The notes: generated from the sequence alone by a model not told the origin. A DNA stretch of 64,000 bases from Candidatus Kapaibacterium sp. (GCA_028376765.1 JAONBD010000001.1:17715-81714), one strand, 5' to 3'. Positions 20,349 to 64,000 are shown, counted from the stretch's first letter. Translations and numbers: made by a program.

Positions 20349-20719
20349 ATGTCTTAATAGCTGAAGATTCTCCAACAATGAGAAGAGTAGTAACTGGAAT
20401 AGTTTCTCAAGCATTTCCAGATACAGAAATGTTTGAAGCAGGTGATGGTAAAGTTGCTTGGGATTTATTAAAAATTGAAGAAATAGACTTAGTTCTAAGT
20501 GATTGGCTTATGCCAGAAATGAATGGACTGGAACTAATAAAGAGCATCCGATCTAACGAAAGGCTTAAAAATTTGCCATTTGTAATGGTTTCCACAAAAG
20601 GGATGAAACAAGATATTATTGAAGCAATAAGAGCTGGTGTTTCTGATTATTGTGTTAAACCTATTCAACCCCTAATTCTTGAAAATAAAATAAAAAATGC
20701 ACTAGCAAAAGGACAATAA
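20345..20719 (+). CDS. Single-domain CheY-like response regulator
   Basis: REC motifs are present (DLVLSDWLMPEMNGLEL, K near the C-terminus). The start overlaps the metF-fusion stop. Confidence 0.8.
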   Translation: MNVLIAEDSPTMRRVVTGIVSQAFPDTEMFEAGDGKVAWDLLKIEEIDLVLSDWLMPEMNGLELIKSIRSNERLKNLPFVMVSTKGMKQDIIEAIRAGVSDYCVKPIQPLILENKIKNALAKGQ

Positions 20720-47900: not shown

Positions 47901-50900
47901 GTGGAAAGTAGAATGAATAAGGCTGGTTTAAATAAGTAAATTGACATTCAACCCAAGAACCTGCTTTAGCAGAAGCAGTTTTAAAAGGAATTTGTACTTT
48001 GCTGCCAGGTGTGAAACTAGGACTAATTGTTTCCAAAATTTGCTTGTTTGGCTCATTTGGATTCCTATCGTAAATTGTTAGTTTAGTGTTTTCAGCTCCA
48101 TTGAATTGCTCGGAGAAGAATTCTAGCTCAATTTGATCTTCATTTCCTTCAGTGAAGAAACCAAAACCTCCATTTGATTTCATAAACAATGGAATATCAG
48201 TTCCATTGGATTCTACATTTAATATCCAGTTAAATAAAGTGGGTTCAGTTTTATCTGTTTCATAAATGTTGAGACTCATTTCATAATTTCCTTCTGATAA
48301 CCTGCCCATATTTAGGGGTAAAACTAAAGAAGACAAAAAGTTATTCTGATTAAACAAAAAGTTACTTTTAGAGATAAAGCCACTACCATAAAAAATACCA
48401 AAATCACTTAATTCACTTGATAATGATTTATTGTAAAGATTTAAATATAGAAATCCATTTAAGTCTTGCTCATAGTAGTTATCTTCAGAAAATTCTAAAT
48501 ATGATAGTACAGATTCAGAATTAATAATAAAGTCGGAATCATGCATAGTTTTAATAATATCATTATAGTCTAATGCCTTTGACCAGAAACTGAAAGCTGA
48601 AATCTCTCCATCAATTGATAGGCTATTATCAAGGGTTTCATTATAGCCAATATTAATGTTGTATTCTTGAACTTCGCTTAAGTTAATACTTTCATTATCT
48701 AGGGCAAGAGTTTTTACTAATGTACCATTGATAAAGATATTCATAGTTCTTCCACCTTCAACAGTACAAGTAAAATGAGTCCATACATTGTTATTAAATG
48801 ACTGAATGGTTTGGATTGATTCATTATTGACTTGAAAAACAATATTTCCAGCTGAATTTAAATTTACCTGAGCAAATTTAGAATAGTCTTGCTCTTCTTC
48901 GGGGCCATCAATCTGCTGATTAAAGCTAACAAAAGATTGATTTAAATCAGATTTAGTTTTGAACCACCCAGTAAATGAAAAATTACCAAATCCCAAAAAG
49001 TTTGCGGTTTCTGAACCAGATCTTGAATAAATAGAGACACTATCGCCATACAGCTCTAAAGACCTGTTTGTTAGCTCATTAGCTGACGTAAAACTTCTTT
49101 GGGTCAAATCTGAAATATCGTATAAATAAGTAGGATCTAAAAACCATTTACATTGCCCACCATAAGTAAGGTCTAAATTTTCAATGTAATCTAAGCCAGT
49201 TCCTTTAAAATCCCAATAGTGGTTTAGATAAAATGGATTATTATAAATGTTTTCAGATAAATTAAAACTAAATAAATTATTAATTTCTGATTCTCCAAGT
49301 GGAGTTTTTGATACAGCAACTTCACCCAAATTACCTATAAAACTTCTATCGACTGAAATAGGATTAGCTTGGAATTGCCCAGAATTTCCGAAAATCCAAT
49401 ATCCAACAAAATCCTCTGTAACATTTTGGGATGAGCTTCCATTATCGCTTACTAATTCAGCTTCTTTATTTCCATCAACATACAATTGATATTTGGTAGA
49501 TTGAGCTTCACCACCAGTAAAATTGCTTTCGTAAGAAACAACAACATGGTGCCATTCATTATCGTTAAATGTATTTTCTGAACTTATAATAAAAGGATTT
49601 CCGCCATCTTTATTGATATTATAAAAGTTAAGTTTTCCATCTTTTAAATAAATGAATTTGCTTACTTGATCAGGAGAATTTATATCATTGGTAGTTTGGT
49701 AAGAAACTATTGATCCATCTTTCTTTGATGTCTTAAATTTTGCACTAATTGAATAACCAGATATCTCATCATTTTCCGTAAAGTTAATTTTATCAGTATT
49801 TTTAGTGATTGCAAACTGTTGGTCAGCATCTGAAAATTGTAAAATATATCTTTTATAATTTTCAAGGTTAAAGTCAATATCTACTTTATTTGTATTTTCC
49901 GGCATTCCTTCAAATTTAAATATTTCATAAATATTCTGTCCATTTGTATAGCTTATTGTATCTGGAATATTTACTTCATACTTAGCATCAAAAGGTAATA
50001 AGCTTTCTAGTAATGGATATGGTGTTTTCAGCTCTACCGTTATGAGTGTATCAGATAGAAAAACTCCATTTGGGTCAAGAGCTTGGGCGTGAATAAATCT
50101 TGTAAAAGGGTTTATATTTGCAAAGTCAATAATTGTTTCAGCTATAGGGTAACCCCGATCGCTATTTACTTGCAAGATTGTATCTTTTACAATTCTATTA
50201 TTATAGGTAAGTATTTTTAATTCAACAGTTTCACAATTGGAAAATGATGGTTCAATACTAATGGTTACGGGAGTTATTTTCTTCTGATTTGTATCAATTG
50301 GGTTATTTGGTCGCCTATCAAAATTTATGGGATTTAGAGAAATTCTTGGCGAATTAGGTATAACTTCTATTTGATGAAATACCTCAAGTCCATCTGTTGG
50401 ACCACCATCTGCCATTACAATAGCTTCCATTATTGATGTGCCAGTTGGAATAGTATCCATTTGAATTGAAAAAACAGCGTCAGTAATTTCGCTTTGATGA
50501 TATTGAGGAAGAATTGTATCGTTATAAACAGTTCCATCATTTGATGCTAGTGAAATGAATACTTTCCTTGTTCTTGGTGGTAAATCGAAAACTCTGAATC
50601 TATGAGCAAAACGATCTTCAAATTCGGGCCATTGGTCTGATGGGTTATCTACTCTTTCAAAATTATTTGAAAAAAACTCCCAAGTATTCCTTTCAGATCC
50701 AATATACATTTCAGGAGGTTGAATATTTAATGATAATAATTCTTCTTCACCATTTATCAAACCATTTTCTTGGAAGACGGTAATTTTAAGTTGAGAGCCC
50801 AAAACTAATGGTAGGTTCTCTAAATCTAGTACCCACTCAGCATTTGTTAATTCGGTTCCAGTTAATGTTTTTATTGTTTCTTGAGAATTATCAAGTCTGT

Positions 50901-52545
50901 TGCCATGATAATCAACAAGTTCTAAAACTAACTTATTAGTATTATTTGAAATAGAATCAATAGTAATTGTATCTTTTATATTTTTTGTGCCTATCCGGTA
51001 CGGTTGGAAATTTCTCGCCGATGTAACATGAATTTTTAAAGGGTAGATGCTTATAGCTTTCTCGATTTCAAATCCTATTCCAGGATTCTCAGAAGTATTT
51101 GCATTAACAATAATCGATGATTTTAAGCTCAAATCACTAATATTATGGCTATAAGTTTCATCTGAACTTGTATTATCAAAGTATACTGAATCAATTGTTT
51201 CTTGATTAATATAATCATAAGTTTTTATGTTTACATTATCAAAATAATTTGCGTCAGATACAGTATAGTTATTAGTTTTTGTATAAGTAGCCTTAAAAGG
51301 ACCAAAACCATTATCCGAACTTAAAGTGAAATTGTTGTAAAGATCGCCAAGTAATATTTTTTGCTTATGCCTAGCTAATGGAATTGCTGCCTGCAAGGAA
51401 CCATCGTTAGTATTATAATTAGTTATTATTACTTTCTCAATTTCATCATTATCATCTAAAAGGAAAATGGCAAATTTTCTTGGGTTTATAGTATTATTAT
51501 CATCGGTAAAAGTATCTTCAATATCATTTAAGGTTAATGTTATATCAATTGATTGAATATTCTCGGACCAAATAGTCATTGTGTCAATACTTAAATGGTA
51601 TATATTCCCATCATCTACTTTGGTATATCCCCTTGGAGCGTCGGTGGGATTAGTGATCAAAGCAAATGAACTTTTGCTAAAGGCTTGGTCAAGACTAAAA
51701 TATCTAAATCGTTTTTTACTTTTAGGATTACCGTAGGTAAGTAGTTCTAAATAACCATAGTATCTATCTAATTCATTTACTTCAAAACAATCTGAATCAA
51801 TTATTTCGGAATATACTGACTCATAATTAGTAGCTTGACCTTCAAATGTCTCCTTAATTAACCTTGTTCCATAAGGGTCGGGTGGACTGGTAAAAAACAA
51901 ATCATTATCGAACATCGAATACGTTAGATTATTTAAATATAAAACATCTGATTCACTGTAGGTTCCGTGTAAACTAATTGGATATATATTAACTTGATCG
52001 ATTTGCCCTTTGAAACCATGATGATTGCTAGTTCTAATTCCATCAACAATATTTCCCTTTGGCAAATTTCCAAAAATTAGTTTTTGAGGTCTGTTATAAG
52101 AAAACTCAATTATTGTACTTTGTGGATTTGATAAGTTACCAGAAACAAATAGTTTACGAAAATCTTGTGAAATGGATAGATGGTTCCATACTCCAAACTT
52201 TATATTAGATTGTAAAGTTATACTTTTACGCCCTAAATTTTCAATAAAATCGTTCAAAAAATGGAATGTAATGTCACCATTTGGTTCTAATTCAACTCTC
52301 CAAAAATCATCCATTTCAGTTCTGTTAAGTTCATCTAGTGCCCCATTAGTAGGATTTGCACCTACTATATTGCCTGGTTTAAGGGGCTTAAACCAAAAGC
52401 TAATTGTCCAATCTTGCCTATCTAAAAGATCAGTGTCATTAAAAATGACGCTAGAGCTATCAGTTTCTAAGTAAACTGCTGGATTTGCCTGTCCCAATAG
52501 AATTGATCCATTTATTAAAAGCAAAATTGTAATAATTAGTTTCAT
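44935..52545 (-). CDS. Giant (2536 aa) secreted multi-LamG/concanavalin-A-like-domain protein with T9SS C-terminal sorting domain
   Basis: Signal peptide MKLIITILLLINGSILLGQA. There are at least three LamG-like segments (DWTISFWFKP..., WHHVVVSYES...YQLYVDGN..., VWTHFTCTVEGG...IFINGT). The C-terminus IQVYPQPATNFVMVNG...GLYFIEVQ is a T9SS CTD. Confidence 0.8.
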   Translation of the reverse strand: MKLIITILLLINGSILLGQANPAVYLETDSSSVIFNDTDLLDRQDWTISFWFKPLKPGNIVGANPTNGALDELNRTEMDDFWRVELEPNGDITFHFLNDFIENLGRKSITLQSNIKFGVWNHLSISQDFRKLFVSGNLSNPQSTIIEFSYNRPQKLIFGNLPKGNIVDGIRTSNHHGFKGQIDQVNIYPISLHGTYSESDVLYLNNLTYSMFDNDLFFTSPPDPYGTRLIKETFEGQATNYESVYSEIIDSDCFEVNELDRYYGYLELLTYGNPKSKKRFRYFSLDQAFSKSSFALITNPTDAPRGYTKVDDGNIYHLSIDTMTIWSENIQSIDITLTLNDIEDTFTDDNNTINPRKFAIFLLDDNDEIEKVIITNYNTNDGSLQAAIPLARHKQKILLGDLYNNFTLSSDNGFGPFKATYTKTNNYTVSDANYFDNVNIKTYDYINQETIDSVYFDNTSSDETYSHNISDLSLKSSIIVNANTSENPGIGFEIEKAISIYPLKIHVTSARNFQPYRIGTKNIKDTITIDSISNNTNKLVLELVDYHGNRLDNSQETIKTLTGTELTNAEWVLDLENLPLVLGSQLKITVFQENGLINGEEELLSLNIQPPEMYIGSERNTWEFFSNNFERVDNPSDQWPEFEDRFAHRFRVFDLPPRTRKVFISLASNDGTVYNDTILPQYHQSEITDAVFSIQMDTIPTGTSIMEAIVMADGGPTDGLEVFHQIEVIPNSPRISLNPINFDRRPNNPIDTNQKKITPVTISIEPSFSNCETVELKILTYNNRIVKDTILQVNSDRGYPIAETIIDFANINPFTRFIHAQALDPNGVFLSDTLITVELKTPYPLLESLLPFDAKYEVNIPDTISYTNGQNIYEIFKFEGMPENTNKVDIDFNLENYKRYILQFSDADQQFAITKNTDKINFTENDEISGYSISAKFKTSKKDGSIVSYQTTNDINSPDQVSKFIYLKDGKLNFYNINKDGGNPFIISSENTFNDNEWHHVVVSYESNFTGGEAQSTKYQLYVDGNKEAELVSDNGSSSQNVTEDFVGYWIFGNSGQFQANPISVDRSFIGNLGEVAVSKTPLGESEINNLFSFNLSENIYNNPFYLNHYWDFKGTGLDYIENLDLTYGGQCKWFLDPTYLYDISDLTQRSFTSANELTNRSLELYGDSVSIYSRSGSETANFLGFGNFSFTGWFKTKSDLNQSFVSFNQQIDGPEEEQDYSKFAQVNLNSAGNIVFQVNNESIQTIQSFNNNVWTHFTCTVEGGRTMNIFINGTLVKTLALDNESINLSEVQEYNINIGYNETLDNSLSIDGEISAFSFWSKALDYNDIIKTMHDSDFIINSESVLSYLEFSEDNYYEQDLNGFLYLNLYNKSLSSELSDFGIFYGSGFISKSNFLFNQNNFLSSLVLPLNMGRLSEGNYEMSLNIYETDKTEPTLFNWILNVESNGTDIPLFMKSNGGFGFFTEGNEDQIELEFFSEQFNGAENTKLTIYDRNPNEPNKQILETISPSFTPGSKVQIPFKTASAKAGSWVECQFTYLNQPYSFYFPLLARPGIPPKLNGDFSNIFEAIAPNTMSDVRKFSIGNQEDAVSKFVVRAVNIANQALGDTITIPINSTNTKQSFFTYDVSKLKSPHSYLILESYFDDNPIPDTSISYPINVNRTRPDWFNSNMSYSNITINDENISFELEGFLDKPEVTSYIAATDSKIFDPFAVKPIPASYYLNSDAIRSYDLPSALPVLGGKGISLPFSKLKIKLNYDTKTRKLSILDKPTISYQDNVFGVNVSEKVFTIDNYSNLLDNKNNINFSHFNSYSVQGNLLGPGIIGTLNKVREILKEERRLQIADLFQINIDINLAYALSKGQFLNVRSDANSWGNIGKLDAGSFNQENPDENNTDIASFAYSQLGLGLAIGIDANLLSGLADAHVSVTIRFLFGNISMNHDLPYPSYRKYSSVSNQIFAKATASFCWGLVKKTIFGPELIHTFHLTDNQIPTIIPTPVGWPSGLGAKPKGYKLQEGEQSGQASFSYDSPTSPQPELDSDNDNLVACWLEQDIKTKSAKLMISYFEKESNKFLNSTVISENSSGMSNPKVSINNNKVYVTWMQNRHNTTNVPDNVSLEYLFNTTDIWFAVYDLGTKELLHISPIEDDFETFDKGRVEGRPYVAALSDNQAMLSWFVANSETGTSDVYYATIDFDGTNFTHSNPEIIYETEGTETDLNLLRTSDDQCLVTWKSSSDFGNSQQLLSSYWDGSAWSSPNIFLESDESFMINDVDSDIFNGKGLLAVSVHDMNDKDADQILVYHWNESQRIWESNSLVHKLEDSYPRDIRVTVSDSLAVVMFEEHKTNILDDSHLGENDILSVDINDPIELTHLNSNEYFSEEPTKTWHYDLDIINNNTFFLLSNEIMNQGNTFDPINGEIFSEPSNNLIFRAFKITNDFEIEDVDEDNIISSLIEKEELSANNIQVYPQPATNFVMVNGKLNRTNKIKRLYNSAGLTIANYDIDFKGTYKLNLDFPSGLYFIEVQNDNSITRIPIIIMEHE

Positions 52546-52749: not shown

Positions 52750-53406
52750 TCAGCCTAATTTCCAACCATTGTCAGAAATTGTTTTCCTAATTGCCGAAAT
52801 TAAATAATAACGCCTTTCATCATTGAGCGTAGAACCAAATGAAATTCTTTTTGCTCCTTCAAAAAATATGCTAGTTCCTCTTTTTGAGTTTCTGAAGTGT
52901 GAAGATTTTTCACTTATTTTTGAAATATCAGCCCAATCAAATCTCTTCTTTAAACCAACCTTACCAATTCCTTTGAAAATCTTACCACCCTGACTATTTA
53001 ATGTGATTTCTACTTTTCCCCAAATAGACATGAGAGCTAGACTCCAAAAAATAATAGAACCAATCAAAAATGGTATTCCAAAAAGTGATAGTAGTAAATC
53101 AAATTTTGCATTATATATTTGAGAGCCATAAATACCGCCAATAGAAGCTCCAGACCAAATTAACATAAATGGAACTAAGAAAAATGCAATAGCTGAGCGG
53201 GTTGATGCTCCAATTGTAGTATTGTTATAATCAGAAATTATCCAAGTTCCATTTGGAGAATCTTGAATATTAAAATTATAATCGAAAGTACTATTAAGGC
53301 TTTCAGATATTACAAATACATTATTACACGCAGAACACCTAGCAATATCCGATTGAATATTGATATATTCAGATTTTATTCCTGAATTACATTTTGGACA
53401 TTTCAT
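52750..53406 (-). CDS. Hypothetical membrane protein with N-terminal CxxC...CxxC zinc-ribbon
   Basis: MKCPKCNSG...CSACNNVF, followed by three hydrophobic helices. Confidence 0.5.
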   Translation of the reverse strand: MKCPKCNSGIKSEYINIQSDIARCSACNNVFVISESLNSTFDYNFNIQDSPNGTWIISDYNNTTIGASTRSAIAFFLVPFMLIWSGASIGGIYGSQIYNAKFDLLLSLFGIPFLIGSIIFWSLALMSIWGKVEITLNSQGGKIFKGIGKVGLKKRFDWADISKISEKSSHFRNSKRGTSIFFEGAKRISFGSTLNDERRYYLISAIRKTISDNGWKLG

Positions 53407-53494
53407 TGATATTTTTTAATTCCATTTATTGATAATGATTTAATAAAAAATATTGAGAAAATCTTGATTATCATTTTTATCTCAATTTATAAGT

Positions 53495-53707
53495 AATCTG
53501 GTAACACTTGGTAACACTTTTTCGCTTTTAAAAGTGTTACCACTTCCCTTTTTTAACTGGCTCGTCATTCAGAAGGAGGACGACAGTCCGACTAAAGAAT
53601 CCAGTATGGGCAGGTTTTCACTGGATTCTTCGCTTCGCTCTGAATGACGTGGAACAGCTAGTTTTTACTGGATTCTTCCTTCCGCTTCGCTCAAGTCTGA
53701 ATGACGG
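53495..53707. repeat. Inverted copy of the 5597-5920 composite repeat. It has an inverted double decamer at 53498-53517, a direct GTGTTACCAC at 53534-53543 and a palindromic hairpin element at 53563-53649 plus a partial duplicate to 53706.
   Basis: 53497-53707 aligns with the reverse complement of 5700-5876. Confidence 0.75.
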
Positions 53708-53961
53708 GCGTCTTGCAGAATGTTTCTACCGCAGTATTCGTTGGCTCTTTTTTGGGCGTAAGCTACCAAAGCCAAAACAAAATACAAGAAAAGCATTTAT
53801 CCATATTTTGCAAACCGTTTATAAAATATTGGGGTGAAAATTTGCATATCAAATTAGTATTAAATTTATCTAATTATTCAACTTAAAAAAATTTGAATTT
53901 ATTTTGTATATTAGACCTAACAGTATTCTTTAAATTTTTGAAAAAGTAAAACAGTCAAAAA

Positions 53962-56900
53962 ATGAATTTAGAACTTATTTTAAATAGAATAGATCTCTTT
54001 GTTGTTGAAATCATATTAAATGATAACAAATTTAATATAATAGACTTGAACAAAACAGCCGAAATGGTCTTTGCTAACCATAGCAAAGAAGAATTTTTAA
54101 GAAATATTGATGGTAAGTTAAAAGAGTGTTTTTACACAAAAAATGAGCTTAATACTGAACTTCAAATTGGAGATTTCTTTTTTAATTTTGAGCTTATTCC
54201 AATTAATGAAATTATACATTGTATTGGGAAAGATGTAACTAATGAGCTTCAATTAAAGCAAAAAATTACTCATGTCTCTTATGACATGGGGGAAAGAATT
54301 AAAGAGCTAAATTTATTAAATCAAGTTTCTGTGATTACTGAAAAGGTAGTAAAAGATTATGAAACAGTTTTTAGTGAAATTGTGAAATTAATCCCTCCAG
54401 CTTGGCAATTTCCTCAAATTACAAGTGCAAGAATAGAATTTTTAGATCAAATTCATGAAAGCGAAAACTTTAAAGAAAGCCAATGGTTATTAACTCAAGA
54501 TTTAGAATACAATGGCTTACCTTTAGGATCAATCGAAATATATTATAAAGAGAAAAAACCTTTAGCTTATAAAGGCCCATTTTTAGAAGAAGAAATCAAT
54601 CTACTTAATACCCTTTGCAGGTATATTGTGAGCTTCTACGAACGAAAATCCAACGCAACAAACATAAGAGATCTAAATAAAAACTTGGAAGAGCTTGTTG
54701 CAAAACAAACAACAGAATTATCAATGCAAACGACAGCATTAAATCAATCTGCAATAGTTTCTCTGGGGGATCGAAAAGGTAATATTATCGAGGTAAATGA
54801 TTATTTCTGTAAAATTTCCAAATTTGATAGAAATGAATTAATTGGAAAAAATCACAACATAATCAATAGCGGGTTTCACTCTAGAGAATTTTGGTTGGAC
54901 TTCTGGAATACTATTAAAAGAGGAAAAACTTGGAAGGGCCGAGTAAAAAACAAGGCAAAAGATGGTAGCTATTACTGGACTGAAACAGTAGTCGTACCTC
55001 AATTAAATGACAAAGGTTACCCCCACAAATTTCTTTCTATCCGCCTAGATATTACTGAACAAATTAAGGTTCAAGAGAATATTAAGAAACTTTCTGTTGC
55101 AATGGATCAAAATCCTGCTGCGGTTTTTATCACTAATACAAAAGGCGAAATTGAATATATCAACCCACAATTTACTGCAATAACAGGCTATTCTATTGAA
55201 GAAGCAGATGGGAAAACACCAAGTCTATTGTCATCAGGGTTAACACCACCAAAAGTTTATTCCAATCTTTGGAAGACTATTCAATCTGGCAAAATATGGA
55301 GAGGTGAGCTTCAAAATAAACATAAAGATGGAACAATATTTTGGGCAAGTATATCAATCTCAAATGTAAAAAATGAAAAAGGGGAAGTAACTCACTTTAT
55401 TGCAATTGAAGAAGACATATCTGAGCGAAAAGAGCAAGAAAAAATTATTAAAGAAAGCGAAGAAAGATTCAGCTCAATGTTGTCAAATGTTCCAGGTGTA
55501 ATATTTAGATGTAAGCTAGATAAAGATTGGACAATGTTATTCATGAGTGATAAAGTTAATGAATTGATTGGCTACCCTAAGGAAGCATACTTAAAAGGAA
55601 AGCTTACATTTAATGATACAATTCATCCTGATGATAGAGAATTTGTTGCAGATCAAATTGAAACACAGCTGAAGAATAATAATTCGTACACAATTGAATA
55701 CCGGATCATAACAGCTTTAGGCGATGTTAAATGGATTAGCGAGCAAGGAACAGTATCCTCTGAAAATAATAAAGAGAAATTGCTCGATGGCGCAATGTTC
55801 GATATCACTGGAAGGAAAGAAGCAGAGCAGGGAAAGGAGCAGGATAAACAAATGATCGAGCTTGCAGTTCAAAGCGGTGGACTTGCTATTTGGGAATGGA
55901 ATTTGGAAGATGATGAGCTAAGTGCAAATGACACTTGGTACAAAATGTTCGATATAAAAAAGGATAACAAGAATAAGGTTGATGAGTATGATTCTAGAAT
56001 ACATCACGATGATGTTGAAATCGTTGAAAAAACATTTTTAGATCACATCACTGGCAAATCAAATAAATATGAACTTGAATTCAGGTACTTGTCTAGAGAT
56101 ATGCAGAGCTACAAATGGATTTCTGGAATTGGTAAAATAGTAAAGTGGAATGAAGATGGGTCTCCATTAATTTTCATGGGTATAAATCAAGATATATCAA
56201 GACGGAAAGAGCAAGAGAATGAAATACTAAAAAGTAAAGAGAGATTTAAAATCGCTACAGAAAGTGCTGGTCTTGCAACTTGGGAGTGGTTTGTTAAGGA
56301 AGATAAAACTGTTGCTTCAGAAAAGTATCTTGATGTATTTGGATTTGATCCCGCAATAGTAAAAGTATCTGATGAATGGGCAAAGAGATTACATCCTGAT
56401 GATTCGGAAGCAACATTCCAAGCACTGACCGATCATCTAGAAGGTAAAACGGAGTCATATTACTCTGAATTCAGATATAGACATCCTAAGTATGAGCAGT
56501 ATATTTGGCTAAGTGGAGCAGGTAAAGTTGTTGAGAAATATGATGATGGATCACCTAAAATTTTAATGGGAATTAATGAGGATATAACGGAGAGAAAAGA
56601 AGCTGAAGAAAAACTTAAGGTTTCAGAAGAACAGCTCAATTACGCACTTGAAGCTACTGGAGAAGGCGTTTGGGATTGGTTTATTCCAGAAGAAAAGGTG
56701 AAACATAATATTACATGGTGTGATATTCTCCAAGTTGATTATGATAAAGTGGAACATGGAATGGATTTCTTCGCTCAATTAATTTATGAGGAAGATCGCG
56801 AAGAAGTGATGGCGAAAGTCAATGATTGTTTGGAAGGGAAAGCCGATTATAAGTCTACTCACAGAATGATAAATCCTGATGGAAGGATAATATGGGTTGA

Positions 56901-59900
56901 TGACAAAGGAATTGTAGTTCAAAGGGGAAATAAGGGTGAGCCATTGCGAATGGTAGGATCCATAACTGATATAACAGATAGAATAGAAAATGAAAAAGCA
57001 ATTACTTTTGAAAAGAATAAAGCTCAACTTCTAAAAGATATTGCTCTTGAAGCTTATAATTCAGATCTTATAGATGGAATTATAACTCTTTCATTAACAT
57101 ATGTAGCAAAATTTAAAAACTGGCCAGTAGGCCATGCCTATATTTTGAATAATGATAAAACAATTCTAAAACCTTCTGGTTTATGGTATTCAAATAGCAA
57201 ATACAATTCTGAAAATTTTATTGAAATAACAAACAATACAGATTTCAAAATTGGTACAGGTTTACCAGGAAGAGTATGGAAAACTAAAAAAGCTGCTTGG
57301 ATAGAAAATGTACTCTTAGATAATAATTTTCCTAGAAATAAAGCTGCAAAAGAACTGGGAGTAAAAGGAGGTTTTGCTTTCCCAATTATAATTGATAACC
57401 AAGTTTTTGGTGTTCTGGAATTTTTCTCAAAAGAAGAAGAAAAACCAGATGATGATTTACTAGATTTAGTAGAACAAATTGGGATACAACTAGGTTTTGC
57501 TATTGATAAAAAAATCTCAGAAGAGGAAATAATAAAAGCAGGCCTAACCAGTAAAACAGCACTTGATTTAAGTAAATCTGGTGCTTGGGAAGTTGAAGTT
57601 GCTGGTGTTGAAATGCAAGACATGAAATTTAAGGTTACAGATGAACTGATAACTCTACTTGGTGTTAAAAGTTTTAAAAATGGTTACGTGAATATCTCTG
57701 ATTATATGAGAGTAATTCAAGAAGTTAGCCCTGAAGATGCAAAATTAGTTATGGAAAATATGGCTAATACACTTCAAGGAGAGTCTAATGATTATGATAT
57801 AACTCATAAATATAAAAAAGAAACAAATGATGAAATAGTTTGGATCCGGAATAAGGGAACGGTAATAAGAGATGAAAATGGTTATCCAGTTAGAATGATG
57901 GGTGTAGCTCAGGATATTACGGATATAAAAAATGCTGAAGAAGAATTAAAAAGAAATAATATACTAGTAGAAAATGCTCTTGATTTATCAAAATCTGCTT
58001 TTTGGTATACTGATTTAAATAATCCAGAATATTATGTTTCCTCTGACAAATTAGAAGAAATATTTGGAGAAGAACATAAACCTGATTACAAATACTACCT
58101 CGAAGAAGATTGGCTAAAAAGAATTTCAGAGATAAGCCCTGAATTAGCAGATGCTGCTGGTGTTAACTATAACGAAGCAATAGAAGGCAAAAGACCTAGA
58201 TACGATGTGATATATCCTTATAAGCGTCCTAAAGATGGTAAAGTTATTTGGGCTCATGCAATAGGCGAGGTAGTAAGAGATGACAATGGAAAACCCATAG
58301 AAGTCTTAGGAGTTGTCCAAGATATTACAGATGAAAAACAAAAAGAAGAAGAATTAATTGAAAACAGGGCTTTGATGCAGTCCCTTTATGATTCTATACC
58401 TGATCTGATTTTTGCAAAAAATACCAGTGGAAATTACGTACAAGCAAATACGGCATTTAAGAAGTTCATAGGTATGGAAAATAATGATGTAATAGGCAAA
58501 ACTGATTATGATTTATTCCCTAAAGATACGGCTGATTTTTTCAGAGAGAATGACAAAAAAATGTTGGACCAAGGCTTTAAGAGAAATAACGAGGAATGGG
58601 TAGATTATCCTGATGGGAGCAAGGTCTTACTTGATACTTTAAAAACACCATTTTTTGATTTAAATGGCACATTATTAGGTTTGTTAGGTATAAGCCGAGA
58701 TATTACCGAACGAAACAAAGCTCAAGAAAAGCTTGAAAAAGCAATTCAAGCAGCTGACGCTGCTAATTCAGCAAAATCTCAATTCCTTGCTAATATGAGC
58801 CATGAGATCAGAACTCCAATGAATGCAATTATTGGATTAACTCATCTAGCTTTGAAGACAGACTTGGATAAAAAACAACACGATTATTTATCAAAAGTTG
58901 AAAAATCTGCTAAATCTCTTCTAGGGATTATAAATGACATTCTTGATTTTTCTAAGATAGAAGCTGGTAAATTATCAGTTGAACATATCGAGTTTGATAT
59001 TGAACAGGTAATCGATACAGTTTCTAACCTAATAACATTCAAAGCTCAGCAAAAAGGTCTTGAACTTGTATTTGGTATTGATCACGAAATCCCAGTAAAT
59101 CTAGTTGGTGACCCTTTGCGATTAGGTCAGATTATTACTAATCTTTGTTCAAATTCTGTGAAATTTACTGATAATGGAGAAATCTTTGTTTATGTTAAAA
59201 GAGTAATGGATAGCTCTAAAGAAATTAAACTTGAATTCTCTGTGAAAGATACTGGTATTGGAATGACACAAGACCAAGTAAATAAACTTTTCCAATCATT
59301 CACCCAAGCTGATAGCTCTACTACTAGAAAGTATGGTGGAACTGGACTTGGACTTACTATATCTAAAAGTTTAGTAGAGATGATGAATGGAGATATATGG
59401 ATTGAATCTGAACCTGATGTTGGTACGACTTTCTATTTCACTGCTGTTTTTGATAGATCTAATAACGAAAGAGATAGAACATTTACTCCAAGTGTAGATT
59501 TAAGAGGTATGAAGGTTCTTATTTGTGATGATAATTCAACTTCATTAAAAGTTCTGCAAGAAGCATTAGAATCTTTTTCTTTTGAAGTTCATACTGTTAG
59601 TTCGGGTAGCGAAGCAATAGGTGAATTGCAGAGGTCTAAAGACCAACCTTATGAACTAGTGCTGATGGATTGGAATATGCCTGAAATGGATGGTATTGAA
59701 ACTTCAGATATAATTAAGCATGATGCATTAATTCCTCAAATACCAGTTGTAATTATGGTTACAGCCTATGATAGAGAAGAATTAATTAGTCAGGCCAATA
59801 AAGTAGGTATAGATGCTTTCCTTGTGAAGCCAGTTAACTACTCCTTACTATTTGATACAATAATGGAATTGTTTGGTAAGGGCAATACTAAGAGATCTAG

Positions 59901-60972
59901 AAAACATAAAGACGGAACAAAACATGAATTTGCTCTAAATGAAATAAAAGGTGCAAATATATTGTTGGTAGAAGATAATGAAATCAACCAACAAGTCGCA
60001 ACTGAACTTTTTGAAAGTTCTGGTTTTAATGTTGATGTTGCAGATAATGGGCAAATTGCTGTTGATAAGGTTAAAGAAAATGGTCCAGAAGCTTATGATA
60101 TAGTATTAATGGATCTTCAAATGCCAGTTATGGATGGTTATACTTCTACTAAAACAATTAGGCAGGATTATACATCAGAACAAATTAAAATTGTTGCTAT
60201 GACAGCAGATGCTATGGTCGGTATCAAGGAAAAGTGTATTGATGTTGGAATGCAAGATTTTGTTACTAAACCAATTGATCCTGATGAAGTTTTTGGTGCA
60301 TTGGTAAAGTGGATCAAGCCAAGAGAAGGAATGGTTCAAAATGTTAAAAAATCAGATGCGAAATCTGATATTACTATCCCTGATCTTAATTCAATTAATA
60401 CTGAATCTGGACTAAAGCGATTGGCTGATAACAAAAAATTATACTTATCATTATTAAGTAAATTTTTAAAAAAGAATGAGGACTTCATATCCGACTTAAT
60501 TACTGATTTTGATAAAAATGACAGAGAAGCTTCTGTTAGAAAAGCCCATACATTAAAAGGCGTTTCAGGAAATATTGGTGCTGAAAAAGTGTTTAATCAT
60601 TCTAAAACAATGGAAGATAAATTAAACGAAGATTCTTTTATTCCAGTTAGTGGTAATACTTTTGAGCTGAAAAATGCAATTGATGAGGTAATTAAAGAAC
60701 TGAAAGAAAAATTAGTAGAAAATAGCAATTCCGAATCAAACGATGATAAAAAATTGGATAAAGCAGAGCTATCTAAATTATTTAATATCCTTTTGGATTT
60801 ACTTAGTGAAGATGATTTTGATTCATCAAACACCTTAGATGAAATACTAGATCTTGATGGGTTAGGCACATTACGATTGAAATTTGAATCTATAAAAGAC
60901 TCAGTTTCCGGTTACGACTTTGAAGAAGCTTTAGAAAAAGCAGAAGAATTGAAAAAGGATGTTGATGTATAA
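53962..60972 (+). CDS. Giant cytoplasmic multi-sensor unorthodox hybrid histidine kinase (roughly 10 PAS/PAC plus a GAF domain, then HisKA, HATPase_c, two REC domains, C-terminal HPt)
   Basis: No signal or TM segment. There are repeated PAC-like motifs (...KDGS/T..W......). The GAF region is near 57.2-57.5 kb. The H-box ANMSHEIRTPMNAIIGL is near 58.8 kb, with G1/G2 boxes (DTGIGM, GGTGLGL). REC Asp contexts are LVLMDWNMPEMDG and IVLMDLQMPVMDG. The HPt motif is KAHTLKGVSGNIGA. Confidence 0.85.
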   Translation: MNLELILNRIDLFVVEIILNDNKFNIIDLNKTAEMVFANHSKEEFLRNIDGKLKECFYTKNELNTELQIGDFFFNFELIPINEIIHCIGKDVTNELQLKQKITHVSYDMGERIKELNLLNQVSVITEKVVKDYETVFSEIVKLIPPAWQFPQITSARIEFLDQIHESENFKESQWLLTQDLEYNGLPLGSIEIYYKEKKPLAYKGPFLEEEINLLNTLCRYIVSFYERKSNATNIRDLNKNLEELVAKQTTELSMQTTALNQSAIVSLGDRKGNIIEVNDYFCKISKFDRNELIGKNHNIINSGFHSREFWLDFWNTIKRGKTWKGRVKNKAKDGSYYWTETVVVPQLNDKGYPHKFLSIRLDITEQIKVQENIKKLSVAMDQNPAAVFITNTKGEIEYINPQFTAITGYSIEEADGKTPSLLSSGLTPPKVYSNLWKTIQSGKIWRGELQNKHKDGTIFWASISISNVKNEKGEVTHFIAIEEDISERKEQEKIIKESEERFSSMLSNVPGVIFRCKLDKDWTMLFMSDKVNELIGYPKEAYLKGKLTFNDTIHPDDREFVADQIETQLKNNNSYTIEYRIITALGDVKWISEQGTVSSENNKEKLLDGAMFDITGRKEAEQGKEQDKQMIELAVQSGGLAIWEWNLEDDELSANDTWYKMFDIKKDNKNKVDEYDSRIHHDDVEIVEKTFLDHITGKSNKYELEFRYLSRDMQSYKWISGIGKIVKWNEDGSPLIFMGINQDISRRKEQENEILKSKERFKIATESAGLATWEWFVKEDKTVASEKYLDVFGFDPAIVKVSDEWAKRLHPDDSEATFQALTDHLEGKTESYYSEFRYRHPKYEQYIWLSGAGKVVEKYDDGSPKILMGINEDITERKEAEEKLKVSEEQLNYALEATGEGVWDWFIPEEKVKHNITWCDILQVDYDKVEHGMDFFAQLIYEEDREEVMAKVNDCLEGKADYKSTHRMINPDGRIIWVDDKGIVVQRGNKGEPLRMVGSITDITDRIENEKAITFEKNKAQLLKDIALEAYNSDLIDGIITLSLTYVAKFKNWPVGHAYILNNDKTILKPSGLWYSNSKYNSENFIEITNNTDFKIGTGLPGRVWKTKKAAWIENVLLDNNFPRNKAAKELGVKGGFAFPIIIDNQVFGVLEFFSKEEEKPDDDLLDLVEQIGIQLGFAIDKKISEEEIIKAGLTSKTALDLSKSGAWEVEVAGVEMQDMKFKVTDELITLLGVKSFKNGYVNISDYMRVIQEVSPEDAKLVMENMANTLQGESNDYDITHKYKKETNDEIVWIRNKGTVIRDENGYPVRMMGVAQDITDIKNAEEELKRNNILVENALDLSKSAFWYTDLNNPEYYVSSDKLEEIFGEEHKPDYKYYLEEDWLKRISEISPELADAAGVNYNEAIEGKRPRYDVIYPYKRPKDGKVIWAHAIGEVVRDDNGKPIEVLGVVQDITDEKQKEEELIENRALMQSLYDSIPDLIFAKNTSGNYVQANTAFKKFIGMENNDVIGKTDYDLFPKDTADFFRENDKKMLDQGFKRNNEEWVDYPDGSKVLLDTLKTPFFDLNGTLLGLLGISRDITERNKAQEKLEKAIQAADAANSAKSQFLANMSHEIRTPMNAIIGLTHLALKTDLDKKQHDYLSKVEKSAKSLLGIINDILDFSKIEAGKLSVEHIEFDIEQVIDTVSNLITFKAQQKGLELVFGIDHEIPVNLVGDPLRLGQIITNLCSNSVKFTDNGEIFVYVKRVMDSSKEIKLEFSVKDTGIGMTQDQVNKLFQSFTQADSSTTRKYGGTGLGLTISKSLVEMMNGDIWIESEPDVGTTFYFTAVFDRSNNERDRTFTPSVDLRGMKVLICDDNSTSLKVLQEALESFSFEVHTVSSGSEAIGELQRSKDQPYELVLMDWNMPEMDGIETSDIIKHDALIPQIPVVIMVTAYDREELISQANKVGIDAFLVKPVNYSLLFDTIMELFGKGNTKRSRKHKDGTKHEFALNEIKGANILLVEDNEINQQVATELFESSGFNVDVADNGQIAVDKVKENGPEAYDIVLMDLQMPVMDGYTSTKTIRQDYTSEQIKIVAMTADAMVGIKEKCIDVGMQDFVTKPIDPDEVFGALVKWIKPREGMVQNVKKSDAKSDITIPDLNSINTESGLKRLADNKKLYLSLLSKFLKKNEDFISDLITDFDKNDREASVRKAHTLKGVSGNIGAEKVFNHSKTMEDKLNEDSFIPVSGNTFELKNAIDEVIKELKEKLVENSNSESNDDKKLDKAELSKLFNILLDLLSEDDFDSSNTLDEILDLDGLGTLRLKFESIKDSVSGYDFEEALEKAEELKKDVDV

Positions 60973-62140
60973 TAGCAGAATATTAATTGTTGATGATACC
61001 CCAGAGAATATAGATGTATTAGGTAATATTCTTAAGGATTACAAGAAAAGTGTTGCCTTGAATGGCAAAAAAGCAATTAAAATTGCAAACGAAAAATCAC
61101 CAGACCTTATTTTACTTGATATTATGATGCCTGGTATGGATGGTTTTGAAGTTTGTAAAATCCTAAAGGTAAATCCAAAAACAAAAGATATTCCTATAAT
61201 TTTTATTACAGCAAAAAATCAAGTTGAAGATGAAACTAAAGGACTTGAACTTGGAGCAGTTGACTTTATTTCTAAACCAATCTCACCACCATCTGTTTTG
61301 GCAAGGGTAAAAACACACCTTGAGTTAAGTAGGTCTAGAAACGAATTAACAACAAAAAACTCTAAATTACAAGAATTAAACAACCATATTTTAGAGTCGC
61401 TATCCTACGCTAAATTAATTCAAAAATCAGTTCTGCCCTGGGAATCCCAAATAGATAAATTATTTAAAGATTATTTTATTCTTTTTAAACCACAGGATAT
61501 TGTATCAGGGGATTATTATTGGATGCAACAAAATGATAAATATTCTTGGTTAGCAGTATGTGATTGTACAGGGCATGGAGTTCCAGGGGCTATGTTATCA
61601 ATGATAGGTTCAAAGATTATGGATGATTGTATATTGAGTGAACAGATTTATGATTGTGATTTAATTTTAGAAAAATTTGATAAAAAGTTTTCCGATTCCC
61701 TTAATAAAAGTGAAAATGCAAATTATTTGAGAGACACAATTGATGTTTGTTTAATCAGAGTTGATAAAAAATCGAAGCTAATTCAGTTTTCAGGTGCAAA
61801 ACGACCACTACTTTTTATTAAAGATTCAGAATTACACGAAGTAAAAGGATCTAGAAAAGCTATTGGAGATTATTTTAAGAATACAAATTCTTTTGAGAGT
61901 CATGAACTTGATGTATCAGAAGTTAGCTATTTGTATTTAACTAGTGATGGTTTTCCAGATCAAAATGATCAGTTTGGAAAAAAACTTGGTTCCAAAAAAT
62001 TTAAAGAGCTTTTATTGAGCCACCACAACAAAAAAAGTTTAGAACAGAAGAATACTTTGTTGGGAGAACTTCATAATTTCCAAAAACAAGAATCTCAGAG
62101 AGATGATATAACGATAATCGGATGGAACCCAAATGAATGA
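60959..62140 (+). CDS. Response regulator with PP2C-type (SpoIIE/RsbU-like) Ser/Thr phosphatase output domain
   Basis: N-terminal REC (LILLDIMMPGMDGFEV). C-terminal PP2C motifs SGDYYW...DCTGHGV...DGF...DDITIIG. The start overlaps the kinase stop by 14 bp. Confidence 0.8.
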   Translation: MLMYNSRILIVDDTPENIDVLGNILKDYKKSVALNGKKAIKIANEKSPDLILLDIMMPGMDGFEVCKILKVNPKTKDIPIIFITAKNQVEDETKGLELGAVDFISKPISPPSVLARVKTHLELSRSRNELTTKNSKLQELNNHILESLSYAKLIQKSVLPWESQIDKLFKDYFILFKPQDIVSGDYYWMQQNDKYSWLAVCDCTGHGVPGAMLSMIGSKIMDDCILSEQIYDCDLILEKFDKKFSDSLNKSENANYLRDTIDVCLIRVDKKSKLIQFSGAKRPLLFIKDSELHEVKGSRKAIGDYFKNTNSFESHELDVSEVSYLYLTSDGFPDQNDQFGKKLGSKKFKELLLSHHNKKSLEQKNTLLGELHNFQKQESQRDDITIIGWNPNE

Positions 62141-62497
62141 AATAAATAAAATACTCATTGTTGATGATACTCCCGAAAACATTGATGTTCTTGGTGAAAT
62201 TCTAAAAGATCATAAAAAGTTTGTTGCCCTTAATGGAGAAAAAGCTCTAAAAATTGCTGAAAACAAATTACCAGATTTAATTTTACTTGATATTATGATG
62301 CCTGGTATGGATGGTTTTGAAGTTTGCTCCAAGCTTAAAGAAAATACGATAACTAAAAATATACCAGTTATTTTTATTACAGCAAAAAACCAGATCGAAG
62401 ATGAAACAAGGGGTTTAGAGCTAGGTGCAGTGGATTTCATTTCAAAACCAATTAGCCCTCCTATAGTATTGGCAAGAATAAAAAATCATCTTGAATT
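60977..62497 (+). repeat. Tandem paralogous REC-domain coding segments (60977-61320 and 62154-62497), about 80% aa / 75-80% nt identical, including an identical 44-bp stretch
   Basis: MLMYNSRILIVDDTPENIDVLGNILKDYKK... versus MNEINKILIVDDTPENIDVLGEILKDHKK.... TTACTTGATATTATGATGCCTGGTATGGATGGTTTTGAAGTTTG is identical in both. Confidence 0.8.
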
Positions 62498-63536
62498 AAT
62501 AAGTTCCAGAAATATATTGGAAATTAATAATAAAGAACTCGAATCTACACTGGTAGAGCTTAAACAAACTCAGTCTCAATTAATTCAAAATGAAAAAATG
62601 GCAGCTCTAGGTCAGCTTGTTGCAGGGGTTGCACATGAGATAAATACTCCACTAGGTGCTATTAAGTCTTCAAATTCTAATCAAATTGTGAACGTAGAAT
62701 TTATAGTAAATACTCTTCCTAAAGTTTTATCTCAACTGAACCAAGACCAACTTGATGCCTATCAAAATTTATTAAAATCAGGGTCAAAATCCCAACAGGT
62801 TTTGAGCTCACGAGAAGAGAGACAGCTAAAAAAATCACTTAAGCTTCAGCTTAAAGAAAACTCTTTTAACGAATCGTTTGCAGAAAATTTAGCTAATGCT
62901 GGAATCTATGAGATTGATAGTGATACAAAACAAATTTTATCCCTTAATTCAGAAGAAATAATTAAATCTTTATCAAAGATTAATGGGCTAAAAACATCAG
63001 CTGAAATTATTAAATTAGCTTTAGATAAAGTTAGCAAAATTGTATTTGCTTTGAAAAATTTCTCTCGACATGATTTTTCTGAGACAAAAGCTTACGCTAA
63101 TTTGTCAAGTGGGCTGGATTCTGTATTAATTATATATAATAATCAGATAAAGCAAGGGGTTGAAATTGTAAAAGATTATTCCTTTACCTCACAAATTATG
63201 TGCTATGAAGACCAACTTAATCAAGTTTGGACTAATATTATACATAATGCACTACAGGCTATGAAAAATAGCGGAACCATAGAAATAAAAACAATACTAG
63301 AAGGTGATATGGTTAAAGTCTCTATTTCTGATAATGGGCCTGGTATCCCAGAAGATATACAGAAAAAGATTTTTGATCCCTTTTTCACAACTAAAGAAGC
63401 TGGCGAAGGTACTGGAATTGGACTTGATATTGCAACAAAAATTATTGCAAAGCACGAAGGAAGAATTACATTTGAGTCCCAAATTGGTAAGGGAACAACA
63501 TTTTACATTTATCTACCGGCATTAACAAATGAATAA
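62133..63536 (+). CDS. Hybrid response-regulator/histidine kinase (REC + HisKA + HATPase_c)
   Basis: REC domain, then the H-box LVAGVAHEINTPLGAI and ATPase motifs (DNGPGI, GTGIGL). Overlaps the upstream stop by 8 bp. Confidence 0.8.
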   Translation: MNEINKILIVDDTPENIDVLGEILKDHKKFVALNGEKALKIAENKLPDLILLDIMMPGMDGFEVCSKLKENTITKNIPVIFITAKNQIEDETRGLELGAVDFISKPISPPIVLARIKNHLELISSRNILEINNKELESTLVELKQTQSQLIQNEKMAALGQLVAGVAHEINTPLGAIKSSNSNQIVNVEFIVNTLPKVLSQLNQDQLDAYQNLLKSGSKSQQVLSSREERQLKKSLKLQLKENSFNESFAENLANAGIYEIDSDTKQILSLNSEEIIKSLSKINGLKTSAEIIKLALDKVSKIVFALKNFSRHDFSETKAYANLSSGLDSVLIIYNNQIKQGVEIVKDYSFTSQIMCYEDQLNQVWTNIIHNALQAMKNSGTIEIKTILEGDMVKVSISDNGPGIPEDIQKKIFDPFFTTKEAGEGTGIGLDIATKIIAKHEGRITFESQIGKGTTFYIYLPALTNE

Positions 63537-64000
63537 ACCCCTAATAATATGTGTTGATGATGAAAAAATTATTCTGGATAGTTTAAAGCTTGAATTGAGT
63601 AGTACTTTTAGAGATTTAGTTGAAATTGAAGTTGCTGAATCTGCCGATGAAGCTCTTGAAATAATTGAAGAAGAAACAGAAAATGGTAGAGAAATCCCAA
63701 TTATTATTTCGGATTATGTTATGCCAGGTATGAAAGGCGACGAATTTCTAATAAACTGTTCTAAAACTCTTCCCAAGACAAAAAGAATTTTACTAACTGG
63801 ACAGGCAACAGCCGAAGGTGTTGGTAATGCGGTTATAAATGCTGGTTTGTATCGCTTTATTTCCAAACCTTGGGAAAAAGAGGATTTAGAACTAACTATC
63901 TCTGAAGCTTTTAGAAGTTTTTACAAAGATAAAAAAATTGCTCTTCAAGAATCAAAGCTAGAAGAACTAAATAGAATTTTGCAGGTAAAAATAGCCGAAC
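63529..64000 (+). CDS. Response regulator (REC domain followed by a coiled-coil); 3'-partial, runs off window end
   Basis: ATG at 63529 overlapping the upstream stop (ATGAATAA). REC motifs CVDDE...ISDYVMPGMKG...K. Open to position 64000. Confidence 0.7.
   Translation, partial: MNKPLIICVDDEKIILDSLKLELSSTFRDLVEIEVAESADEALEIIEEETENGREIPIIISDYVMPGMKGDEFLINCSKTLPKTKRILLTGQATAEGVGNAVINAGLYRFISKPWEKEDLELTISEAFRSFYKDKKIALQESKLEELNRILQVKIAE

Follow-up and report, generated by a model that had tools for sequence, protein, structure and literature searches.

A putative branched, two-tier His-Asp phosphorelay encoded in a translationally coupled operon of Candidatus Kapabacteria

Gene content and layout of the operon

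The DNA analysed here is a 64,000 nt stretch of a Candidatus Kapabacteria metagenome-assembled genome (MAG), called the window below and used for counting all positions, whose last part (53962-64000, + strand) carries four overlapping signalling genes that probably form a branched phosphorelay. Gene 1 (53962-60972, MDC1067580.1) encodes an unorthodox sensor histidine kinase of 2336 aa that is predicted to be soluble, gene 2 (60965-62140, MDC1067581.1) a 391-aa protein in which a receiver (REC, Asp52) precedes a PP2C phosphatase that appears to be of the SiaA type, gene 3 (62133-63536, MDC1067582.1) a 467-aa histidine kinase putatively controlled by its own REC, and gene 4 (63529-64000, cut by the window end) a 'KPW'-class REC (Asp62) with the start of a coiled-coil linker. 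The three annotated proteins all come from one 91,813-bp contig. The G+C content of the operon region is about 30-35%, and GC and AT skew are steadily positive along the + strand.

The longest open reading frame (ORF) of gene 2 spans 60959-62140 and opens on an alternative ATG at 60959; the NCBI start is the second ATG, at 60965 (the NCBI protein is 100% identical). Taken as longest ORFs, the four genes overlap by 14, 8 and 8 bp, just as the preliminary description of this DNA had stated, and with the NCBI start of gene 2 the series becomes three 8-bp junctions of the form ATGnATrA: 60965-60972 between genes 1 and 2 (ATGTATAA), 62133-62140 between genes 2 and 3 (ATGAATGA, kept in the related loci L088, L089 and L090) and 63529-63536 between genes 3 and 4 (ATGAATAA, kept in L084, L089 and L090). 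The first of these is an adjacency without overlap in L088.

Gene 1, a multi-PAS unorthodox kinase

Scanned with Pfam both as a whole protein and in 130-aa segments, gene 1 presents nine PAS domains, one GAF, HisKA, HATPase_c, two REC and one Hpt. PAS1-PAS6 (aa 241-1010, 54682-56991), the GAF (aa 1011-1190, 56992-57531; GAF_2 2.4e-15, 57.4 bits) and PAS7-PAS9 (aa 1191-1600, 57532-58761) precede a kinase core (58771-59442) in which HisKA (1604-1669, 77 bits) holds H1614 within HEIRTP and HATPase_c (1716-1827, 103 bits) has its N, G1 and G2 boxes all in place. Tandem receivers follow at 59515-60297, REC1 (aa 1852-1970, Asp1903) and REC2 (aa 2000-2112, Asp2051), which score 85.6 and 98.8 bits and both carry the complete DD/D/T/K signature. 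The HPt domain (aa 2164-2243, 60451-60690) has His2196 in HTLKG and is followed by an acidic tail of about 90 aa; against a cut-off of 24.6 bits, the Hpt match reaches 38.6 bits with the whole protein and 43.5 bits (3.9e-11) with the segment. The order HisKA-HATPase-REC-REC-HPt that had been read from the sequence is thus recovered domain by domain by Pfam with all phospho-sites intact (H1614, D1903, D2051, H2196), and this includes the HPt, an assignment on which the preliminary description had made itself depend.

No transmembrane (TM) segment is predicted in gene 1 and no 19-residue window reaches 1.6 on the Kyte-Doolittle scale. The kinase is therefore predicted to be soluble, in line with the cytoplasmic protein originally proposed, whose size in ORF terms is also the same (2336 aa).

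The sensory part had been described as roughly ten PAS/PAC domains plus a GAF. The GAF and nine PAS hold, and we rejected the tenth as unproven, since the N-terminal region (aa 1-240, 53962-54681) has no Pfam match at E<=1. This region, to which we assign no fold, gave a probability of 0.2 when aligned with hhalign to a profile built from the nine PAS of gene 1, an insignificant BLAST match to the gene 1 GAF and an unusable single-sequence AlphaFold 2 model (pLDDT 35.6).

PAS1 and PAS2 share a NifL-like motif, GK(N/T)xx(I/L)(I/L)xS, present as GKNHNIINS in the former (aa 295-303, 54844-54870) and as GKTPSLLSS in the latter (aa 417-425, 55210-55236), and the NifL model reaches 225 bits on gene 1 with its best stretch at aa 379-536. 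This suggests that the two domains could be flavin-binding, redox-sensing PAS, which we offer as a lead rather than a result. The PAS pairs most alike are PAS4/PAS5 (40% identical), PAS7/PAS8 and PAS1/PAS2, a pattern that points to internal duplication. Among curated NCBIfam models the top matches are BarA (512.6 bits against a cut-off of 890), ArcB (470.5 against 838) and TorS; these, as well as LuxQ and LetS, all stay below their cut-offs, so that gene 1 is not placed as an orthologue of any of the five.

Gene 2, a receiver joined to a SiaA-type phosphatase

The gene 2 receiver is complete (D10/D11, D52, T82, K104; Pfam REC 100 bits), and its PP2C part, recognised by Pfam as SpoIIE (59 bits), retains every metal-binding motif. 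The best NCBIfam model is SiaA (6.6e-57), covering the PP2C part, and the sole PDB sequence match at E<=0.001 is the PP2C structure of Pseudomonas aeruginosa SiaA (6K4E, 1.2e-40, over the whole PP2C), with which SGDYY, DCTGHG, TSDG and RDDIT align (GDxY, DCxGHG, xDG and RDDIT). The REC-PP2C build, a further assignment on which the preliminary description had staked itself, stands on these Pfam and structural matches. Judged by its sequence, the phosphatase is SiaA-type and not RsbU/STAS-type; the 'partner-switching-type' output proposed before keeps its PP2C and is amended in its type. As a full-length SiaA gene 2 falls far short (193 bits against a cut-off of 700); the model is matched at positions 395-655 only, and a REC takes up the N-terminus. 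Nothing follows the PP2C in the protein, and the C-terminal RsbW-like kinase domain of HsbR is not present by Pfam.

For a phosphatase of the SiaA type, the expected target would therefore be a SiaC-like protein. Relatives of the gene 2 family in three loci (L081-L083) adjoin a kinase of the SiaB family (95.7 bits, cut-off 85) and a protein resembling SiaC (1.2e-35), and about 30 listed gene 2 homologues are DUF6272-REC-PP2C fusions of 563-576 aa, DUF6272 being the family of the adjacent SiaB-type kinases. We had considered the Sia-module relatives, about 50% identical, as gene 2 orthologues, a view that has to be tempered, given that the PP2C part alone is 35-43% identical.

These Sia-type modules (L081:10001-16130, in a 6.9-Mb assembly; L082:10001-16162; L083:10001-16164; one relative being an Ignavibacteriaceae MAG) run in the order REC-PP2C, SiaB-family kinase, SiaC-like protein, small ORF (82-100 aa) and a protein of about 1250 aa with three AAA+ modules of the SpoVK/CbbX/EccA type. 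They look like a Sia-like partner switch with an apparent AAA+ ATPase output instead of a diguanylate cyclase.

Gene 3, a histidine kinase behind a receiver

Pfam finds in gene 3 a REC, HATPase_c and an H-box, the HisKA match itself (21.3 bits, cut-off 26.9) covering the H-box only. An AlphaFold model built on 40 homologues (pLDDT 83) gives the order REC, long helix, DHp and CA: a continuous helix (109-193) carries His168 within HEINT, a second DHp helix (274-311) leads into a normal CA domain, and between the two, at aa 194-273 (62712-62951), a helical insert of about 80 aa within the DHp hairpin is predicted with good confidence. In this model it is the insert, occupying the hairpin, that accounts for the sub-threshold HisKA match, and the REC-HisKA/HATPase assignment made earlier holds. 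Across gene 3 homologues the H-box helix is 63-85% identical and the insert 19-37%; the acceptor D53 is invariant in the 40 used for the model.

The best PDB fold match of the model is full-length LvrB (8vc9, E=3.8e-22, about 22% identity in the fold alignment), the prototype of kinases that become active once their own N-terminal receiver is phosphorylated (PMC13269768). With 115 bits against a curated cut-off of 500, gene 3 falls outside the LvrB orthologues. Its H-box, HEINT, fits the H-E/D-x-x-T/N phosphatase motif of NosK (PMC12570481); gene 3 may therefore be bifunctional and possibly also dephosphorylates downstream receivers.

Gene 4 and a fifth gene

The 157-aa fragment of gene 4 is a REC with D62 and the 'KPW' motif, about 30% identical to the gene 2 and 3 receivers, and its best NCBIfam match is NosR (1.1e-31, model positions 1-149). 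A word-index search with the fragment returned short or truncated proteins only, with mixed outputs (HisKA, cyclase, GGDEF, TM), and named no output. An exhaustive representative search found an orthologue, P0244 (417 aa), 88% identical over the first 155 aa of the fragment and encoded on a small contig (L084), where it shares an 8-bp overlap with the end of a gene 3 orthologue of 76% identity. P0244 combines a REC with HD_5 (39 bits) and matches NosR model positions 1-415 at 2.8e-51 (175 bits, below the cut-off of 400). By orthology, gene 4 in full would be a protein of about 417 aa with a REC and a degenerate HD-GYP-like domain; the 'further REC protein' seen before holds as to the REC and would not be a bare receiver.

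HD-GYP enzymes have the consensus ...HDIGK at the HD dyad site, where the gene 4 family reads ...ASL(I/L/F)(C/S)x(I/L)G.... The dyad is missing in eight of nine aligned sequences, the ninth (P0261) being poorly aligned and kinase-like in appearance. With the dyad replaced, this HD-GYP-like domain is expected to lack catalysis, as in NosR and proteins of the HnoD type. When the HD-like portion of P0244 was used as a query, the scan gave no relative.

In L084 another gene begins 5 bases past the P0244 stop, and its N-terminus is a KPW-class receiver that forms one class with the gene 4 REC; this fifth gene is probably another REC-kinase. Because it follows the gene 4 orthologue there, the operon appears to comprise at least five genes, the window holding the first four, which amends the four-gene operon of the preliminary description.

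Receiver classes and conserved neighbourhoods

Over 118 aa, the REC domains of genes 2 and 3 share 81% identity, against about 30% between either of them and the receivers of gene 4 or gene 1. We rejected a recent duplication as the origin of this likeness, as both are also 66-86% identical to REC-PP2C proteins of many organisms. They belong to a receiver class that keeps 66-86% identity across dozens of REC-PP2C proteins, even where the PP2C itself is at 35-43%, and 73-86% among the nearest homologues of gene 3. Kinases of the gene 3 family (45-64% identical) are found in Kapabacteria, Ignavibacteria, cyanobacteria and Beggiatoa-like/sulfur bacteria, and one 4.49-Mb genome holds two gene 3 paralogues. 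KPW-class receivers with related gene 3-type kinases likewise extend to cyanobacteria and sulfur bacteria.

The transmitter of gene 1 recurs in five other loci (L082, L083 and L085-L087), with 60-69% identity in the core, 59-73% in REC2 and 32-49% in the HPt, behind unlike sensors: TPR, Fe-hydrogenase-like plus PAS, dCache/HAMP/PAS and CHASE8/PAS. In L082 and L083 the large hybrid kinase is again followed by a Sia-type module, with a stand-alone REC, about 50% identical to the gene 2/3 class, between the kinase and the REC-PP2C. In L085-L087 a gene 3-type kinase lies directly downstream of the HPt-bearing hybrid kinase and is followed by zero to two REC + HD_5 genes and then by a KPW-REC-HisKA-HATPase protein of about 380 aa. 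Altogether a KPW-class REC protein follows a gene 3-type kinase in six loci (L084-L087, L089 and L090).

Our reading of the window is that it joins both outputs, REC-PP2C and REC-kinase, behind one transmitter, and the combination is kept in a second lineage, L088-L090, where the order of gene 1 tail, gene 2, gene 3 and gene 4 persists at 51-67% identity with the gene 2/3 and gene 3/4 overlaps. In both Ignavibacteria and Kapabacteria, gene 1-type transmitters are found again in the company of gene 2/3-class receivers. The kinase-to-kinase cassette is found again in Kapabacteria and in two metagenome contigs, so that the depth of the circuit, called unusual in the preliminary description, is not unusual in this lineage. 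A scan of GTDB genomes returned distant matches only (<=38% identity), dominated by generic REC motifs, with the gene 3-type kinase part present in 2 of 80 loci. The JGI metagenomes contain no exact match to a 45-mer taken from the end of the window.

The hybrid kinase at L087:1983-6011, which carries the gene 1 transmitter, has a sensor matching the Fe-hydrogenase large-subunit and 4Fe-4S ferredoxin families plus one PAS. A redox or H2-linked input to the same cascade is possible in this case.

A proposed branched phosphorelay and its alternatives

We favour, as probable though well short of certain, the view that the region encodes a branched, two-tier His-Asp phosphorelay of Candidatus Kapabacteria. 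At tier 0, cytoplasmic signals would be integrated by the nine PAS domains, the GAF and the 240-aa N-terminus of gene 1, which would autophosphorylate on His1614 and relay the phosphate via Asp1903 or Asp2051 to His2196 of the HPt. At tier 1, the HPt would have two parallel acceptors, D52 in gene 2 and D53 in gene 3. Phosphorylated gene 2 would switch its SiaA-type PP2C, for which the likeliest substrate would be a threonine-phosphorylated, SiaC-like switch protein with its gene outside the window, and phosphorylation of the gene 3 REC would turn on the kinase in the LvrB manner, by an alphaS coiled-coil mechanism. At tier 2, His168 of gene 3 would serve the KPW-class receivers of gene 4, as a putative non-catalytic HD-GYP-like effector, and of gene 5. 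The stop/start codon overlaps would hold the stoichiometry of the partners fixed.

An HPt feeding the downstream RECs and branching into a PP2C and a second kinase had already been proposed in the preliminary description, and it is supported in part. Comparative evidence is consistent with it: the near identity of the gene 2 and 3 receivers, as against about 30% identity to the gene 4 REC, the transmitter found upstream of their class in five loci and the conserved gene order. The domains, the catalytic and phospho-acceptor residues, the overlaps, the order of the genes and the joint occurrence of the transmitter with each receiver class are seen directly, and the phosphotransfer arrows we infer from operon anatomy and conserved neighbourhood; activation rather than inhibition, the PP2C substrate and the final output are likewise readings of the sequence.

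Several points weigh against such a relay. The likeness of the gene 2 and 3 receivers does not by itself prove a shared donor, because their class is very conserved and paralogues exist, and cross-talk from other kinases to both is possible. The gene 2 PP2C domain is just 35-43% identical to the PP2Cs of Sia-type modules. The full-length gene 4 and the fifth gene are observed in relatives only. Finally, no SiaB, SiaC, STAS or anti-sigma gene lies inside the window: tblastn with three SiaB-like and three SiaC-like queries over the 64 kb gave nothing better than E=0.05, and Pfam found no STAS, anti-sigma, SiaB, SiaC or AAA+ partner among the roughly 40 window ORFs scanned, which bears out the original remark that no target of the PP2C is at hand.

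A wider reading, which we hold only tentatively, sees in the operon an example of a modular type of kinase cascade, not described before, that belongs to the Ignavibacteria/Kapabacteria group. A conserved HK-REC-REC-HPt transmitter with exchangeable sensors may serve one dedicated, slowly evolving receiver class; what this class plugs in may be a SiaA-type partner switch or, alternatively, a kinase under REC control, and each tier may split into one effector and one kinase of the next tier. If true, this would amount to a branched kinase cascade in bacterial form, without any DNA-binding output in the visible module; no DNA-binding domain was found in the visible gene 1-4 cassette or in the cassettes of its relatives.

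It is unlikely that the genes are co-transcribed and yet do not form a linear relay, the receivers of genes 2 and 3 being fed mainly by other kinases, in the manner of a many-to-one multikinase network, and the HPt of gene 1 serving a different, unlinked response regulator. Such an arrangement would suit a receiver class that is highly conserved, borne by many proteins and present as several paralogues per genome, and the window itself contains two further REC proteins and another REC-kinase. It fits poorly with five independent loci in which the transmitter, behind unrelated sensors, directly precedes this receiver class, and with a gene order that is retained together with the gene 2/3 and 3/4 overlaps at 51-67% identity, genes 1 and 2 being merely adjacent in L088.

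Stand-alone receivers often serve as phosphate sinks (CheY-type). One of the tier-1 receivers might accordingly act as a sink or competitor, for example the REC-PP2C draining the HPt, and so setting the threshold or the timing at which gene 3 is activated, with a PP2C that is constitutive or without a role, an option that we regard as improbable. A single HPt facing two near-identical, competing receivers would allow it, as would the stand-alone RECs of L082 and L083. Every metal-binding motif of the gene 2 PP2C is intact and aligned with the SiaA structure, however, and characterised REC-PP2C proteins such as HsbR are switched by phosphorylation (PMC6482189).

Very improbable, lastly, is a PP2C acting inside the operon by Ser/Thr dephosphorylation of relay proteins (the gene 3 insert or gene 4, for instance) rather than on a SiaC-type partner switch, a role that would couple Ser/Thr with His-Asp signalling: the lack of SiaB and SiaC within 64 kb, the divergence of the PP2C (35-43%) from its Sia-module relatives, its place between the HPt kinase and gene 3 in this lineage and the unusual, fast-evolving insert of about 80 aa in gene 3 would accommodate it, but the visible operon encodes no Ser/Thr kinase, the closest structural and family match is SiaA, and phospho-site marks are absent from genes 3 and 4.

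If the wiring of the branched phosphorelay is right, one operon unites HPt to REC-PP2C switching as in HptB-HsbR, a REC-controlled kinase as in LvrB and a REC with a degenerate HD-GYP as in NosR, mechanisms investigated only apart from one another until now. It would also mean that SiaA-type phosphatases can receive phosphorelay input, and would provide a compact system for asking how a single HPt splits phosphate between two near-identical receivers.

Upstream region and other genes of the window

Gene 1 is preceded by an intergenic region of 555 bp (53407-53961), the presumed promoter region on the + strand, beyond which the divergent gene OAQ99_00315 (52750-53406) lies on the opposite strand. 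No promoter could be called upstream of gene 1, where sigma-70 sites are no more frequent than in shuffled sequence; the terminator scan was also uninformative, and Rfam showed no known RNA in this region. At 53499-53542 a tandem of two copies of TGGTAACACT leads into a perfect 13-bp hairpin (53509-53542) and then a T-rich tail, an arrangement that is terminator-like on the + strand although sited between two divergent genes. A GC-rich, nested palindromic element occurs in two intergenic regions (53560-53709 and 5714-5810) of this AT-rich genome, with arms CGTCATTCAGA ... AAGAATCCAGTA / TACTGGATTCTT ... TCTGAATGACG. The copy that precedes gene 1 has a folding energy of -61.2 kcal/mol (z = -4.2), and an 11-mer of the element occurs five times against 0.75 expected. 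The element, for which Rfam gives no match, looks like a dispersed repeat of the kind of repetitive extragenic palindromes or miniature inverted-repeat transposable elements (REP/MITE-like).

The 218-aa ORF at 52750-53406 has no Pfam match and comes after a gene for a 2536-aa protein (44935-52545, - strand) with several LamG/concanavalin-like domains and a weak match to the C-terminal sorting domain of the type IX secretion system (22.8 bits, below the 27-bit cut-off), which would suit an organism of the Bacteroidota group. Two further signalling genes sit among housekeeping genes: a 360-aa REC-HisKA-HATPase gene (14547-15629), with an 8-bp overlap with the downstream NAD-dependent epimerase gene, and a 124-aa single-domain REC (20345-20719), with a 4-bp overlap with the end of a homocysteine S-methyltransferase-MTHFR fusion gene. 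Their receivers are 26-34% identical to those of the operon.

Comparison with known systems

The family of every component is already known and each proposed step has a characterised analogue. What is new is that these parts are combined in a single operon with translational coupling, that a SiaA-type phosphatase, as we read it, is fed by a REC, and that transmitter and receiver class recur as a pair. In relatives, Sia-like switches appear coupled to an AAA+ ATPase and not to cyclic di-GMP synthesis. Hybrid kinases with many PAS domains are common in environmental bacteria, as are multikinase relays. As the operon comes from an uncultured Kapabacteria MAG and consists of known families throughout, its value is comparative and hypothesis-generating rather than that of a new principle.

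Gene 1 shares with the unorthodox kinases ArcB, BarA and TorS the HisKA-HATPase-REC-HPt transmitter and all its phospho-sites. It differs in being soluble by prediction, in having two receivers and in carrying nine PAS and a GAF in place of a membrane sensor.

The N-terminus of SiaA is a membrane/HAMP-type sensor, in whose place gene 2 has a receiver. Its PP2C matches that of SiaA over the whole length, which likens it to the SiaABC(D) threonine-phosphorylation switch of P. aeruginosa (PMC7647112). Unlike that system, the window is without SiaB, SiaC and SiaD, and the modules of gene 2 relatives end in a triple AAA+ protein and not in a diguanylate cyclase.

Transfer from an HPt to a REC-PP2C is established for HptB-HsbR of P. 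aeruginosa, where the HPt phosphorylates the receiver and so drives a partner switch with HsbA (PMC6482189). Gene 2 has the same REC-PP2C build and lacks both the RsbW-like kinase domain of HsbR and an adjacent STAS partner such as HsbA; the HPt here is a domain of the gene 1 kinase, not a separate protein, and the PP2C is apparently SiaA-type. RsbK-RsbY of Bacillus cereus is comparable, with a hybrid kinase phosphorylating the REC of a partner-switching REC-PP2C.

In LvrA-LvrB-LvrC of pathogenic Leptospira, an upstream kinase acts on a REC-DHp-CA kinase by phosphorylating its REC, and this second kinase in turn phosphorylates a downstream response regulator (PMC13269768, PMC5863495), and gene 3, with the same architecture, stands in the same way between a kinase and a regulator. 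It is not an LvrB orthologue and carries the insert of about 80 aa in its DHp, the upstream kinase here has its own HPt, and the regulator would be a REC with an HD-GYP-like domain, not a REC with an anti-sigma.

The sensor-less kinase NosK of the Burkholderia NosP system phosphorylates NosR, a REC with a degenerate HD-GYP (PMC12570481). Gene 3 resembles NosK in its HEINx H-box and in being without a classical sensor, and its putative partner has the NosR build, NosR being the best match of gene 4 and P0244. The differences are a P0244 score of 175 bits against the NosR cut-off of 400, a neighbourhood with no NosP/FIST gene, a receiver as the input of gene 3, and an HD dyad fully lost in the gene 4 family, the motif of NosR itself being altered to HG-GTP.

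Set along the proposed relay, the parallels are HptB-HsbR (PMC6482189) for HPt donation, SiaABC (PMC7647112) for the PP2C switch, LvrA-LvrB-LvrC (PMC13269768) for the kinase-to-kinase step and NosK-NosR (PMC12570481) for the step from gene 3 to gene 4.

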